The notes under the pieces: model-generated | Seen by the model: only the letters and a program-made list of their open reading frames with translations | What the model was told of the DNA's origin: nothing | Database searches by the model: none | Program-made: the position numbers and the translations under genes | Part shown: positions 20,193 to 44,248 of the stretch, in pieces | Numbering within the stretch: position 1 is the stretch's first letter | Layout: the number at the start of each line of letters is the position of its first letter | Assembly (NCBI GenBank): GCA_963727005.1 | Contig: CAVSEO010000005.1 | Span: 1,227,348-1,291,347, forward strand | Origin: an uncultured Chloroflexia bacterium | GTDB lineage: Bacteria; Chloroflexota; Limnocylindria; Limnocylindrales; CSP1-4 | Reading direction: 5' to 3' | DNA length: 64,000 nucleotides

Positions 20193-21904
20193 GTGCGGCC
20201 GATCGAACCGGGCGGCTTTCGCCCGTTTCACGAACAGCGCCACGCGCAAGGGATCCTTGCGGGGCCGCGACCCGACGGCGGCGACCTCTCGCGCCTTCGC
20301 GGCGGCCGCGCTGGCCGTCGCCGCGGACGGGTGGACCTCCACGCCGGACGCGACGTCGACGCCGACCGCGGGCACTTCCAGCACCGCTTCGGCCACGTTC
20401 GCGGCGTCGAGGCCTCCGGCGAGGATGACCGGGATCTCGCGCGCCACGGCGGCCGCGATCCGGCGGGCAACCTGGCGGCCGGTCCCTCCGGGGAACGGGC
20501 CTCCGGCGGTGTCGAGAAGGAGGCGTTCGGCGCCGGCTGCGAGATACAAGCTTGCCTGCCTCGATTGCGCCGGAAACCACCGAGCCGATGGAGGCGGGGT
20601 CCGACGCCGCGCCGGGTTCGCCGGCGGTGGCGGACTCCTCGGCCGCCGGGAGGTGGAGCACCTTCCAGACCGGGCGGCGAATTGCCGATATCGACTCGAC
20701 GGGCTCGTAGCCGGAAAGCTGAACCGCGTCCGGATCGATGGCCTCGATGGCGGCCTCGATCTCGGCCGCCGGGGCATCGGCGAAGACGGCAACCACCCGG
20801 GGCCGCCTGCCCGCGGGAGAGGCCCCGCGCACCAGGGTCGCAAGCCACGCGGCTTCCGTGACCGCCAGGCAGCGCGGCGTCCCCGGCACGAGGTTGAGGC
20901 CGATGGCATCGGCTCCGGACTCGCAGGGCGGAGAGCGCACCCTCCGAGTCCGTGACGCCGCAGATCTTGACGATCGGCTGCCGCGCCTCCGCCGCCACGT
21001 CGCGTGGCACCGAACCGGCGGAGACGAACGCGCGGGCCGCCGAGGCCGGATCGGCCGAGCGCATCAGCGCCTCGCCGATGAGGGCAGCGTCCAGCCCGGC
21101 CGCCCGCCAGCCGACAAGCGTTCGGGGCTCGCTGACGCCCGATTCGCCTACCGCCAGACGGTCGTTGGGCACGAGCGCCCGCAGGCGCAGGCAGTTGTCC
21201 GGGTCGACCGCGAGCGTCCGCAGGTTCCTGTTGTTGAGGCCGATCAAACGAGCTTCGGTCGAGAGCGCGGCTTCCATCTCGCGCTCGTCGTGAACCTCGA
21301 CCAGGGGCTCGAGGCCGATCTCGCGGGCAAGCTCGGCGAACCGGGCCAGCTTCTTCGCCGGCAGAAGCGATGCCAGGAGCAGGACGACGTCCGCCCCGGC
21401 CGAGCGCAGCACCGGGAGCTGGCGCTCGTCGACGACGAACTCCTTGGCCAGAATCGGGATCGAGACGGCGGCCCTGACGGCCCGCAGATCGTCCACCGAT
21501 CCGCCGAACCAGTGCGGCTCGCAGAGAATCGAGATCGCGCTCGCCCCACCCGATTCGTAGGCTCGAGCCAGGGCCACCGCAAAGTCGACCCCGGTCGACT
21601 CTGCGTCCGCGACGATCGCCCCGGCCGACGGGGAGCTGCGCTTCACCTCCGCGATCAGGTGCAGGCCCGGCGCCGCCAGGCGCTCGACGATCGGCCGCGG
21701 CGCGTTCCCGGGCCGGGCCGAGTAATCGGCCGCGTCGTCGGCGAGGTGGCGGTACGTTCGCGACCCCAGCTCCGCACGCACGTCCGCCAGGCGCCGGGCC
21801 GCGATCTCGGCCACGACTCCGGCCCTCGAGGCAGCGGCGGTGCCGGACGCCCGTGCGGCGCCGGACGCCCGGCCGGGGCGTCGCGGTTCGGCCACGGCCG
21901 TCAT
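20193..21904 (-). CDS. trpC: Indole-3-glycerol-phosphate synthase fused to phosphoribosylanthranilate isomerase (TrpC-TrpF); the TrpF part has two apparent frameshifts near 20940 and 20540
   Basis: TrpC: ...LHLIAEVKRSSPSAGAI...ISILCEPHWFGGS...IPILAKEFVVDERQ...LVEVHDEREME...IGLNNRNLRTLAVD. In frame after a short linker: IVKICGVTDSEGALSAL (TrpF N-terminus). TrpF continues in other frames: ...ESGADAIGLNLVPGTPR...VQLSG...LLLDTAGGPFPGGTG...PVILAGGLDAANV...VGVDVASGVEV. ATGA overlap with the trpD stop. Confidence 0.75.
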
Positions 21905-23831: not shown

Positions 23832-25577
23832 CTATCGACCTGCGCCGGCGGGGGCGCCGGGTGATTGGGCGGTGGCGGTGGCAGGCGCAGTGGCGGGGGA
23901 CGTGGCGCCACGGGACGTTGTCTCGCCACTCCCCGCCGCCTCTGCGATAGCCAGCTCGATGGCCCGGCGAACCGCCCCAGCCTTGTGCTCCGTCTCCTCG
24001 AACTCGCGTTCCGGCACGGAGCCCGCGACGATCCCCGCCCCGACGGTGAGATGGATCCGGTCCTCGCACAGGACGGCGGAGCGGATCGTGATCGCGGTGT
24101 CGAGGTTGCCGTCATAGCCGAGATAGCCGACGGCGCCGCCGTACAGCCCGCGCCGCTCCCCTTCCGCCTCGGCGATGAGCTGCATCGCCCTCACCTTCGG
24201 CGCCCCGGAGAGCGTCCCGGCCGGGAAGATGCTGCGCAACGCATCGAGCGCGTCCAGACCGGGCTTCAGCCGCGCTTCCACGTTGCTCACGAGATGAAGG
24301 ACGTGGCTGTAGCGCTCCACCTCCATGTACTTGGTAACGGCCACCGTCCCCGGCCGGGCCACGCGACCCAGGTCGTTACGGCCGAGGTCGACGAGCATCA
24401 CGTGCTCCGCCCGCTCCTTGGGATCGCGCTCCAGGGCGTACGCCAGGGCGTCGTCCTCGAGCGGCGTGGCGCCGCGCGGCCGCGTCCCGGCTATCGGGTG
24501 AGTGGTGACGCGGTCGCCTTCTACGCGGACCAGCAACTCTGGGCTCGCTCCCACGACCGAGAACTCGGGCATCCGAACGAAGAACAGGTACGGGCTCGGG
24601 TTGATGCGCCGAAGCGAGCGATACAGCGCGACGGCATCCAACCTCTCCCCGCCGATGACCGGGCGCTCGTAGGTCTGGCGCCGGGCGACGACGATCTGGA
24701 TCGCCTCACCGGCCGCGATTGCCTCCTTGGCCGACCGAACCGCCGACTCGTACTCGCCTCGGTCGAGACTGACTTCGATCTGGCTCAGACCTTCGATATT
24801 CCCAGGCCCAGCCGTGCCGAGGCCAGCCGGGCTGTCTCCGTCCGAACCTTCGTCAGTCTCGGTCGGCTCTTGCGACGTCGTTGGCGTCTTCTCCCGCCGG
24901 CCCCTTTGGGTGAGACCCGCAAGCTCGGCCTCCGTCGGCCGAGCGGTCCGCTCCAGGGCTTCGAAGATGGCCCGCTCGGCGATGGCGTAGCGGCCTTCGA
25001 TGTCCGGGCCATCCGTGTGCAGCGAGGCGACCGCCGAGAGGGTGTGGGTCAGGTGGTCGAAGACAAGGACCAGGTCCGTCTCCTGGAATGCGGCCATCGG
25101 GACGCCGATCGGGTCGCGATCCGGAAGCGGCACGGTCGGTTCGAAGGTCGAGGCCGCATCGTACGCGAGCGCACCCACGGCTCCGCCCGGGAACCGTGGG
25201 ATGCCCTCGCTCGGGAGAATCCGTCTCTTGGGCATGAATTGCCGCAGCGCCGCCAGCGGGTCGGGCACCGCGAAGGTCTGGGTCGGGAGGTCCGGGGCGA
25301 AGTCGAGGACACCCACCGGGCGAGACTGGATCGTGGCCTGGCCGTCGCGCACCGTCAGCAGGCGCCGCGGCCCCACGCCCAGGAAGGAGTACCGGCCCAG
25401 CCGCTCGCCGCCTTCGACGGACTCGAGCAGGAAGGCCGGGCCGCCGTCGTCGAAGCGCATGAAGGCCCCGATCGGGGTCTCGAGGTCGGCGTTGCGGGTG
25501 GCCGTGAGCAGAATCGTGTCGGCCGAGCCCGACATCTGCCGGACCTCGTGAAGACTGAGCGGATCTGTGAGTGCCAT
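23832..25577 (-). CDS. trpE: Anthranilate synthase component I
   Basis: MALTDPLSLHEV...LLESVEGGERLGRYSFLG...PYLFFVRMPEFSVVGASPELLVRVEG...GTLSGAPKVRAMQLIAEAEGERRGLYGGAVGYLGYDGNLDTAITIRS (chorismate-binding). A GGAGG Shine-Dalgarno sits 10 nt before the ATG. Confidence 0.9.
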   Translation of the reverse strand: MALTDPLSLHEVRQMSGSADTILLTATRNADLETPIGAFMRFDDGGPAFLLESVEGGERLGRYSFLGVGPRRLLTVRDGQATIQSRPVGVLDFAPDLPTQTFAVPDPLAALRQFMPKRRILPSEGIPRFPGGAVGALAYDAASTFEPTVPLPDRDPIGVPMAAFQETDLVLVFDHLTHTLSAVASLHTDGPDIEGRYAIAERAIFEALERTARPTEAELAGLTQRGRREKTPTTSQEPTETDEGSDGDSPAGLGTAGPGNIEGLSQIEVSLDRGEYESAVRSAKEAIAAGEAIQIVVARRQTYERPVIGGERLDAVALYRSLRRINPSPYLFFVRMPEFSVVGASPELLVRVEGDRVTTHPIAGTRPRGATPLEDDALAYALERDPKERAEHVMLVDLGRNDLGRVARPGTVAVTKYMEVERYSHVLHLVSNVEARLKPGLDALDALRSIFPAGTLSGAPKVRAMQLIAEAEGERRGLYGGAVGYLGYDGNLDTAITIRSAVLCEDRIHLTVGAGIVAGSVPEREFEETEHKAGAVRRAIELAIAEAAGSGETTSRGATSPATAPATATAQSPGAPAGAGR

Positions 25578-25666
25578 CGCCGATTTGCCTCCGGAGCTGG
25601 GACGCATGCCCCACGCTTCCGGGTCGGTCGGCTGCCGCCGGCCACCGGTCCCGCGGGGCGGGAATT

Positions 25667-25915
25667 CAAAAGACCTTTCGTCCTGGGACGAAAGGTCGAT
25701 CCTTCCGCGGTGCCACCCACATTCGGCGATGCCGCACTCTGGCCGACGGGGAGTCAATGCTTCGCATTGACTTTCGTCATCGCTTCGCGATGACACAAGC
25801 CAAGCAGCTTGCTCTGAATCGGTGCTGCCCTGTATCGCTGGCGCTCTGCGCCGGAGCCTACTGGCGAGCCCTGGAAGCTCGCGGTTTGGTCCGGAGGCTC
25901 ACGGGTCCATTCGCT
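25667..25915 (-). promoter_or_regulatory. T-box riboswitch leader (tRNA-Trp-responsive) controlling the trp operon
   Basis: The minus strand carries the T-box consensus UGGGUGGCACCGCGG (plus coordinates 25705-25719; consensus AGGGUGGNACCGCG, 7-nt bulge UGGCACC). It is followed by a mutually exclusive terminator ACCUUUCGUC-CCAG-GACGAAAGGU plus CUUUUG (25667-25696). A candidate specifier GAAUGGA (UGG = Trp) sits about 200 nt upstream (plus 25904-25912). The bulge N = C would pair with a discriminator G73, which is the discriminator base in E. coli tRNA-Trp. Confidence 0.7.
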
Positions 25916-26502
25916 CTCGTCGCCGCCCCAGCTTGCACCAACCGCTGGTTCTCTACGCCGGCGCCGGGAGGTACTCGTCCCGATCACAGCCCGTATTCGT
26001 ATGTGGCGGGAGTCTATGGGGAGACCCGGCGCGGTGTCAAATGGCGTGCCGTCCGGTCGCATGGGTCGCGGAAACGTCTCTCAGTTTGGTGGCGCGCCGA
26101 CGCGGAGCCTCCGGGTACGGCCGGCCCGTCGTCGCAGAGTCTGTGGGTCCGGCCGGGCCAGGATCTCGCAGATGTCCGGCTGTACCGGACAAGAATTGGC
26201 CCGCGAGCCGGTCCAGTCCACGAATTGAGTACGTATCCAGCAGCAGCGGGGCGCCAACCCTCGAATTACGCGTCTTCGAGTCCACCGACGGCCCTCGGGG
26301 ACGCGTTCGGCCCGCGAGCCTGCCTGCTCTTGCAGGGGTCGCCTGCCAGATCGCGCTAGCACAGCCGAAGTTGTCCGTCCAGGCCGGACAAATGCAGGAT
26401 CGGAGACGTGGAACCTTGTCCCTGCGAGAGGCGAGACCGATCCGCCGGCAGCGTCCAGTGGCGGCCGCCGCGCGCCAACCGGCCGCCTTGGGCGAGCAGT
26501 CC

Positions 26503-27489
26503 CTACCAGTACTCCTCGGTGTGGAGCGTCCCGATCTCGTGGCCCTTGTCGCGGACGAAACCGCGGGCCCGCGCCAGCTCGATGACCGTCTCGATCATGC
26601 CCGGGTTGCCGCACAGGAAGATGTCGAAGTTCTCGGGCGTGAGTTCGAGCCCGGTCTCGTGTTCGACCGCGTCCGAAGCGATCACGTTCTGGAGATACCC
26701 GCTCCGGCCGCGCCAGGTGGGGTCTTCCTGGGGCCTGGTGATGACCGGCAGGTAGTGGAAGTTGTGGCAGTGGCGGGACAGGCCCGTGAGCTCGGTGCGG
26801 TAGCCCAGGTCCCACGAGTAGCGCGCGCCGTGGACGACCACGAACTGGCGAGGCCCGTTGCACACGAGCTCGCTGCGGAGCATCGACATGTAGGGCGCCA
26901 GACCGGTCCCTGTCCCGACCATCAGGATGTGCTTGTTGGGCGCCTTGTCGAGGGTGAAGACGCCGACCGCCTTTGGGCCGACGTACAGCCGGTCGCGAAT
27001 TTTCAGGTTGAACAGCCGCGGCGTCAGCTCGCCGCTCATGACCACGGTCAGGTAGAACTCCAGATACTCGTCGGGGCGGCTTTCGGAGGCGATCGAATAG
27101 GCGCGCCGGATCATCCGATCCGGCTCGGCGGCGGCTCGGGCGACCGTATCCGCCTGGGCATCGACCGCCCACTGGCTCTCCGGCGTGCCTGGGATATTGC
27201 CCGCGGTGGGGGCCGCCCCTTCGAACGCGAGAATGCCGGTGACGGCGTCGAGCGGCGCCCCGACCGCGGTCGCGGCGTCCGGCGGAGGCTCTCCGACGCC
27301 CGTGGCCAGCACGCCCGCGACGTCGCCCTCCGCTTCGTCGATCCGCGGCTCCGAGGCCTTCATACCCAGGACGACGTACTGGCCCGCCTTGAACTCGAAC
27401 GGCAGCTTGTCGGGGGCGACGCGCATGATCACGAGTCCGGGCGCGACTTCGACCCGGCTGACCACCGTTGCGTTGTACTCGGCCGCCAT
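26503..27489 (-). CDS. fpr: Ferredoxin--NADP(+) reductase (Fpr family flavoprotein)
   Basis: ...RRAYSIASESRPDEYLEFYL... (RxYS FAD-binding), ...HILMVGTGTGLAPYMSMLR... (NADP GTGxAP motif). 328 aa. Confidence 0.85.
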   Translation of the reverse strand: MAAEYNATVVSRVEVAPGLVIMRVAPDKLPFEFKAGQYVVLGMKASEPRIDEAEGDVAGVLATGVGEPPPDAATAVGAPLDAVTGILAFEGAAPTAGNIPGTPESQWAVDAQADTVARAAAEPDRMIRRAYSIASESRPDEYLEFYLTVVMSGELTPRLFNLKIRDRLYVGPKAVGVFTLDKAPNKHILMVGTGTGLAPYMSMLRSELVCNGPRQFVVVHGARYSWDLGYRTELTGLSRHCHNFHYLPVITRPQEDPTWRGRSGYLQNVIASDAVEHETGLELTPENFDIFLCGNPGMIETVIELARARGFVRDKGHEIGTLHTEEYW

Positions 27490-44160: not shown

Positions 44161-44248
44161 TGGCGGAGAGGGTGAGATTCGAACTCACGGGACTCTCGTC
44201 CAGCGGTTTTCAAGACCGCCGCAATAGACCGCTCTGCCACCTCTCCGC
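44161..44248 (-). tRNA. tRNA-Ser (anticodon TGA)
   Basis: Reverse complement is GCGGAGAGGTGGCAGAGCGGTCTATTGCGGCGGTCTTGAAAACCGCTGGACGAGAGTCCCGTGAGTTCGAATCTCACCCTCTCCGCCA. Anticodon loop CUUGAAA, long variable arm. Confidence 0.9.

Follow-up and report, generated by a model that had tools for sequence, protein, structure and literature searches.

A probable tRNA-Trp-specific T-box riboswitch in the trp operon leader of a Candidatus Limnocylindria bacterium

The leader of the tryptophan biosynthesis operon in the stretch of 64,000 nucleotides analysed here (the window) is very probably a T-box riboswitch specific for tRNA-Trp, which would control the trpE-G-D-(CFB)-A operon of a Candidatus Limnocylindria bacterium by transcription attenuation. 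Such a riboswitch with a Trp (UGG) specifier in front of trpE had been proposed in an earlier note on the same DNA, and the proposal is borne out by a full-length match to the T-box family RF00230, by UGG at the specifier position of every leader with a complete Stem I, and by the trp genes that follow. The features on which this reading is built are collected in Table 1.

Table 1. Features of the trp leader and operon in the window, in the order of transcription
Feature	Position	Strand	Basis or remark
Promoter -35 hexamer TTGACA	26035..26040	-	consensus scan; conserved in relatives
Promoter -10 hexamer TAGACT, 18-nt spacer	26011..26016	-	consensus scan; conserved in relatives
Full-length RF00230 match	25681..25996	-	73.0 bits, E 7.3e-16, gathering score 93
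Stem I	25896..25991	-	model alignment; covariation in 76 leaders
K-turn/GA motif, base of Stem I	25988-25983 with 25901-25899	-	model alignment
Specifier loop 5' side ACGAGUA	25978-25972	-	model alignment
AG bulge AGAGA	25954-25950	-	model alignment
Distal loop GGUUGGUGCAA	25943-25933	-	model alignment
Specifier context GAA-UGG-A	25906..25912	-	sits at RF00230 specifier position
Trp codon UGG	25909-25907	-	specifier of RF00230 alignment
Stem II, base helix CCGGACC / GGCUCCGG, S-turn-like AAC...AGUA, variable tip	25851..25894	-	model alignment
Conserved block aligned to Stem IIA/B (F-box) region, CGCAGAGCGCCAGCGAUACAGGGCAGCA	25823..25850	-	model alignment; nearly invariant in relatives
Extra hairpin domain, lineage-specific, 3' of IIA/B and 5' of Stem III	25743..25822	-	insertion relative to RF00230
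Three hairpins inside the extra domain	25811-25796, 25794-25776 (GUCAUCGCGAAGCGAUGAC), 25771-25753 (GUCAAUGCGAAGCAUUGAC)	-	
Stem III, short, CGGC-AUC-GCCG	25724..25734	-	model alignment; AGUG before, AAUGU after
T-box sequence UGGGUGGCACCGCGG	25705..25719	-	model alignment; conserved core
7-nt bulge UGGCACC	25715-25709	-	Rfam alignment
UGGC, proposed pairing site for tRNA 3' end GCCA	25715-25712	-	
Antiterminator helix, UGGG/CCCA + GCGGA/UUCGU around the 7-nt bulge	25684..25719	-	model alignment
Intrinsic terminator, stem GACCUUUCGUC / GACGAAAGGUC, loop CCAG, 11 pairs	25697-25672	-	terminator scan
Terminator U-tract UUUU (4 U, short)	25671-25668	-	directly after stem
trpE Shine-Dalgarno GGAGG	25592-25588	-	ATG at 25577
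trpE, anthranilate synthase component I, 581 aa	23832..25577	-	TIGR00564 trpE_most, E 2.4e-136
trpG	23690-22956	-	NCBIfam TrpG
trpD	22959-21901	-	NCBIfam TrpD
Fused trpC-trpF-trpB	21904-18807	-	NCBIfam TrpC, TrpF/TrpB (TrpF C-terminal part fused to TrpB)
trpA	18788-17811	-	NCBIfam TrpA

In a permissive Rfam scan of positions 25500-26200, the T-box leader family is matched on the minus strand over model positions 1-219 of 219, and the check suggested in the earlier note, a search of this strand with RF00230, thus gives a full-length and highly significant result, though one that lies about 20 bits below the curated gathering score of 93 bits. Because 73 bits do not reach that score, the T-box is missing from the results of a default Rfam scan over the whole window, which are one SRP RNA and five tRNAs. 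These RNA genes lie at 3421-3683 (-), 4263-4502 (-), 8005-8199 (+) and 44161-44246 (-); the SRP RNA is of the large bacterial type (175 bits), and the tRNAs are four tRNA-Ser (GGA, CGA, GCU, UGA) and one tRNA-Arg (GCG). As for the extent of the element, which has a GC content of 64%, it had been given as 25667-25915; the features named for this interval are present in it, but the element is larger, since the 5' half of Stem I extends as far as about 25991 and the RF00230 alignment as far as 25996.

With one genome searched per species, 80 related loci were found whose TrpE is 67-89% identical to that of the window, and the leaders entered the counts below as 76 with a complete Stem I, 77 with a scorable promoter and 81 with a folded terminator. 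All 80 loci come from MAGs labelled Chloroflexi or Chloroflexota, many of them Candidatus Limnocylindria, which is a class of Chloroflexota, or Limnocylindrales, and all 80 have a T-box element upstream of trpE. The suggestion that a T-box at this place says something about lineage therefore agrees with the relatives found, since Chloroflexota are among the few phyla other than Firmicutes in which T-boxes have been described, trpE included (PMC2494555). The low score of the window is shared by this clade. In seven relatives no T-box is reported by an Rfam scan at the gathering score, and in permissive scans two others, loci L031 and L028, are matched at full length with 65.6 and 72.8 bits, respectively. 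The insertion of about 100 nt in the window was considered as the cause of the low score, and this explanation is wrong or incomplete, as two leaders score similarly to the window, L028, which is devoid of the central domain, and L031, whose insert is short; a low score is thus characteristic of the clade and does not stem mainly from the long insertion. Considering that the window and all nine relatives tested fall below 93, with the scored leaders at 65-73 bits, the gathering threshold is conservative for such a GC-rich clade, and automated annotation of Limnocylindria MAGs will under-report T-boxes.

Stem I shows the hallmarks of the family, namely the K-turn, the S-turn specifier loop AGUA...GAA, the AG bulge and the distal loop, and the residues of these hallmarks are invariant or nearly so in the 76 leaders. 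Its helix was examined as a 20-pair structure in the alignment of these leaders with 500 column shuffles: standard pairs occupy 98.0% of the cells, a share that drops to 29-49% once the 3' partners are shifted by 1-3 columns, 11 of the 20 pairs have changes on both sides, and the observed covariation score is reached by 0 of the 500 shuffles. In the RF00230 alignment AGUA and GAA flank the specifier loop, with UGG and then A at the specifier position itself. The GAA-UGG-A element, described previously as lying about 200 nt upstream, is indeed found at this position of the model, 194 nt 5' of GGGUGG. UGG is the specifier in 76 of 76 leaders, GAA precedes it in 66, and on its 3' side 68 leaders have A and 8 have C. 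The latter leaders (L006, L008, L009, L010, L017, L019, L022 and L071) have UGG-C where the conserved purine A would be expected. Moreover, the amino acid named by the specifier agrees with the genes of the tryptophan pathway downstream.

At the 3' end of the leader, the 14-nt T-box sequence that had been recognized from the letters of the window is confirmed by the Rfam alignment, where it forms the 5' side of the antiterminator with a UGGN bulge of 7 nt, read here as UGGCACC. Its core, GGGUGGNACCGCG, is present in 80 of 80 related loci, once per locus and just upstream of trpE. The residues of the T-box and the antiterminator are invariant, so covariation gives no evidence on this helix either way. 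The variable base N of UGGN is C in 79 of the 80 related loci and U in one (L067), and G is the only discriminator base able to pair with both. According to TBDB, tRNA-Trp carries G at the discriminator position, and T-boxes for Trp have C or, in 46%, U as a G-U wobble. No tRNA-Trp gene occurs in the window, with its five tRNAs, or in the 80 related loci (1.33 Mb), with their 51, and the pairing of G73 of tRNA-Trp with UGGC is proposed here from these published data together with the C/U pattern.

It may also be asked whether the specifier is read in another frame, as A-AUGGA holds AUG (Met) and GGA (Gly) as well; both the -1 and the +1 frames are considered by TBDB, and an A stands before UGG in nearly all relatives. 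In fact the operon downstream is one for tryptophan biosynthesis, the model alignment places UGG at the codon position, and in L031 it is C that precedes UGG, so that AUG is not conserved. Elongator tRNA-Met has A73 and tRNA-Gly has U73, and neither would pair with the C of UGGC. With G73 of tRNA-Trp (TBDB) this conserved C would pair, and a T-box for another tRNA has, in our judgement, next to no chance of being the right reading of this leader.

Returning to the reading as a Trp-specific attenuator, the antiterminator is opposed by an intrinsic terminator. The hairpin and the U-tract expected from the earlier note are both present, though the stem has 11 pairs rather than 10. The 5' arm of the terminator overlaps the 3' strand of the antiterminator, with 25692-25684 as the common strand, and the two structures are mutually exclusive, as had been supposed. 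The computed energy is -19.2 kcal/mol for the terminator versus -5.5 kcal/mol for the antiterminator, and in an unconstrained MFE fold the 3' domain takes up the terminator structure. This is the customary layout of T-boxes, in which termination is the default and the weak antiterminator lasts only with the help of the 3' end of an uncharged tRNA. Among the relatives, the terminator was scored by folding each sequence separately, as loop lengths differ and column-based pair counts from the MAFFT alignment are unusable. By this measure 81 of 81 leaders have a hairpin with 10-16 pairs and, after it, a U-rich tail, and the arms of this hairpin covary among them, as GACC/GGUC, GGCC/GGCC and AACC/GGUU.

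Since the terminator stops about 90 nt short of the start codon, clear of the Shine-Dalgarno sequence, the control is most likely exerted at the level of transcription. The alternative is translational control, with the ribosome-binding site sequestered by the T-box as in the ileS T-boxes of Actinobacteria, and it deserves attention as translational T-boxes are frequent in high-GC lineages other than Firmicutes (PMC7583486) and as the U-tract is interrupted in many relatives, for example in GUUCUUGAUUC. However, the hairpin that competes with the antiterminator has its U-rich tail in every one of the 81 leaders, in the window it stands about 80-95 nt upstream of GGAGG and does not include it, and the distance from the T-box to the ATG varies from 71 to 208 nt in the relatives, which fits poorly to a fixed sequestering helix. 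Translational control is thus considered very improbable here. The interval between the terminator and the trpE start (25578-25667, minus strand) is a GC-rich spacer of about 90 nt, which matches no RNA family; in the relatives it is anything from almost nil to some 130 nt long and shows no conservation. The only weak Rfam match other than the T-box, CC1840 (E 1.3, 25623-25697, plus strand), lies partly on this spacer and ends on the palindrome of the terminator.

Upstream of Stem I, the promoter that had been suggested from its hexamers is the sole promoter-like site found by a consensus scan of 25400-26600, where 0.0 such sites are expected from shuffles. TTGAC(A/G/C) occurs at the matching position in 77 of 77 scorable related loci, the second hexamer is TAGACT (45), CATACT (19) or a close variant, and the spacer keeps a length of 17-18 nt while its sequence is not conserved; in all but a few relatives the end of the second hexamer is followed by Stem I after 15-20 nt. 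The conservation of the hexamers with an unconserved spacer supports both the promoter and a predicted transcription start near 26004 on the minus strand. From this start to the trpE ATG the leader would measure about 427 nt, in good agreement with the length of about 430 nt estimated previously. Directly upstream of the trp promoter lies a gene for a ferredoxin-NADP reductase-like protein (26503-27489, minus strand; NF008178, E 9e-31), which has an N-terminal extension of about 120 aa and a stop about 460 nt before the -35 hexamer.

With respect to the mechanism, leader-peptide attenuation was rejected, as no tandem Trp codons exist in any frame of the leader, and TRAP binding was rejected as well, the leader having no run of (G/U)AG repeats. 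The motifs with their order, conservation and covariation, and the identity of the operon, are seen directly in the sequences; the course of regulation that we propose for a tRNA-Trp-specific T-box draws on what is known of the family for tRNA binding, charge sensing and read-through. Transcription would begin near 26004 from the sigma-70-type promoter, and Stem I would then fold so that UGG in the specifier loop is open to the tRNA-Trp anticodon, CCA, while the AG bulge and the distal loop of this stem would dock the tRNA elbow. If the tRNA is uncharged, its 3' end GCCA would pair with UGGC in the bulge and stabilise the weak antiterminator, with read-through into trpE; if it is charged, the antiterminator would not be stabilised, the terminator with its UUUU would form, and transcription would stop about 90 nt before trpE.

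Between Stem I and the T-box, the leader becomes more variable. Stem II and the block aligned to the IIA/B region are placed by the model with several non-canonical pairs. Both are nearly invariant in the relatives, apart from the variable tip of Stem II, and covariation is therefore uninformative for the Stem II base and unable to confirm the pairing of either element. The short Stem III is flanked by AGUG and GCCGAA, both invariant in 80 leaders. The stretch of about 100 nt from the IIA/B block to Stem III is an insertion in the RF00230 alignment, and it contains an extra hairpin domain closed by CCGAU (25822-25818) and GUCGG (25747-25743) on the minus strand of the window. This domain exists in all full-length leaders, with an interior of 33-113 nt whose sequence is unrelated among relatives. 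The closing helix is part of the MFE structure in 61 of the 76 leaders, and a position beside it alternates between G-U (51) and A-C (23), a split which follows the two clades.

A module of three hairpins, with twin 19-nt hairpins looped by GCGAAGC, fills the domain in the window, L010 and L018. In L006 (5880-5960) the module is the reverse complement of the version in window 25753-25811, L010 and L018: the alignment scores 38.5 in the reverse-complement direction versus 19 forward, while the shuffles have a mean of -4.9 and 0 of 500 reach 38.5. This is most simply read as an inversion between the two arms of the stem that encloses the module; the hairpin structure would thereby have been kept, and the loop sequences turned from GCGAAGC into GCUUCGC. 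The twin hairpins have no further copy elsewhere in the window, and since they are confined to the trp leaders of the window, L006, L010 and L018, a dispersed repeat or mobile element was rejected as their origin.

Deletions are seen in the same region. L028 (9790-9963) is a UGG T-box with no Stem II, IIA/B block or extra hairpin, where about 11 nt link Stem I to Stem III, and still it is matched at full length as given above; L038 (about 1600-1700) has a different deletion, by which Stem II has lost its 3' half and the IIA/B block is gone. Glycine T-boxes are naturally devoid of Stem II, which has been explained by the strong GGC-GCC pairing, and insertions with no assigned function occur in every T-box domain (PMC7583486). 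It is conceivable, but in our view unlikely, that the extra hairpin is a functional module of Limnocylindria T-boxes and that L028 would show Stem II to be dispensable outside glycine T-boxes. If so, the hairpin might provide a further contact for tRNA-Trp, adjust folding during transcription, or be a binding site for a protein or a second signal.

In the relatives, the trpC, trpF and trpB parts of the operon make up a single fused ORF of some 1000 aa (13740-16760 in L001 and 13643-16510 in L031), and such a TrpC-TrpF-TrpB triple fusion is noteworthy in itself. In the window, a tblastn comparison with the intact fusion of L001 reveals the trpCFB region to be split over three frames, with breaks near 20920 and 20549 in the trpF part. 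The breaks are either assembly indels or the mark of a pseudogene, and if they are real, the operon may be decaying in the genome of the window. Accordingly one may ask whether the leader too is a decaying relic, T-box-like but no longer regulating, for its score lies below the Rfam gathering score, trpCFB is broken twice, and two relatives have lost large parts of the central domain. Against this, all functional motifs are intact and are conserved across 80 genomes in which TrpE is only 67-89% identical, and compensatory changes maintain both Stem I and the terminator. Conserved motifs together with compensatory changes point to purifying selection on the structure, and a relic is thus extremely improbable compared with a working tRNA-Trp-specific T-box.

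To sum up, the control of tryptophan biosynthesis by T-boxes, as described for Firmicutes and Dehalococcoides, would extend to Limnocylindria, and in this respect our analysis mainly confirms the ordinary. Limnocylindria is an abundant, uncultured class of Chloroflexota from soil and freshwater. For such a lineage with no cultured representative, the conserved promoter (TTGAC(A/G/C), 17-18 nt, TAGACT or CATACT) can serve as a usable example of promoter architecture. Moreover, the 80 aligned natural variants make up a data set on the changes that a T-box tolerates, among them the hypervariable hairpin, the inverted module and the deletion of the Stem II domain.

As for known systems, three T-boxes were reported in each of two Dehalococcoides genomes (Chloroflexi) by Wels et al. 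in 2008, two of them tied to tryptophan biosynthesis, at trpE and a trpB-like gene (PMC2494555), and Chloroflexi were one of the four phyla with T-boxes in Sun et al. (2013). T-boxes of trpE have thus been known in Chloroflexi since 2008, and the Limnocylindria element adds a class of the same phylum; a limited literature search found no earlier report of a T-box in this class. The Dehalococcoides trpE T-boxes (PMC2494555) resemble that of the window in phylum, in the regulated gene and in belonging to the family of tRNA-sensing leaders, while the class is different and the lineage of the window, Limnocylindria, is known only from MAGs.

Compared with the transcriptional T-boxes with Stem II in Firmicutes (RF00230; tyrS of B. 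subtilis, and the Trp-specific ones on trp operons), the leader in the window has, by the model alignment, the same order of elements: Stem I, with its K-turn, specifier loop, AG bulge and distal loop, then Stem II, the region of IIA/B, Stem III, the T-box of 14 nt with its 7-nt UGGN bulge, and the competing intrinsic terminator. It departs from the Firmicutes canon by its 64% GC, its score 20 bits below the gathering score, its Stem III of only 4 bp and the domain of 33-113 nt before Stem III; also the leader has a single T-box, whereas some bacilli have them in tandem on trpE (PMC2494555). The ileS T-boxes of Actinobacteria (M. tuberculosis, N. farcinica; PMC7583486) are like it in their high-GC host outside Firmicutes and, going by the model alignment, in their S-turn Stem II and their IIA/B region, but they have a shortened Stem I and sequester the ribosome-binding site (PMC7583486), while in the window Stem I is full-length, the distal platform motifs included, and the terminator is followed by a U-tract. 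Finally, the glyQS-type T-boxes, which have no Stem II domain, are similar in layout to L028, where Stem I is joined to Stem III by the same short link, whereas the leader in the window keeps the predicted Stem II and IIA/B region; and L028 differs from them in its specifier, which is UGG and not the GGC whose strong pairing usually explains the absence of Stem II (PMC7583486).
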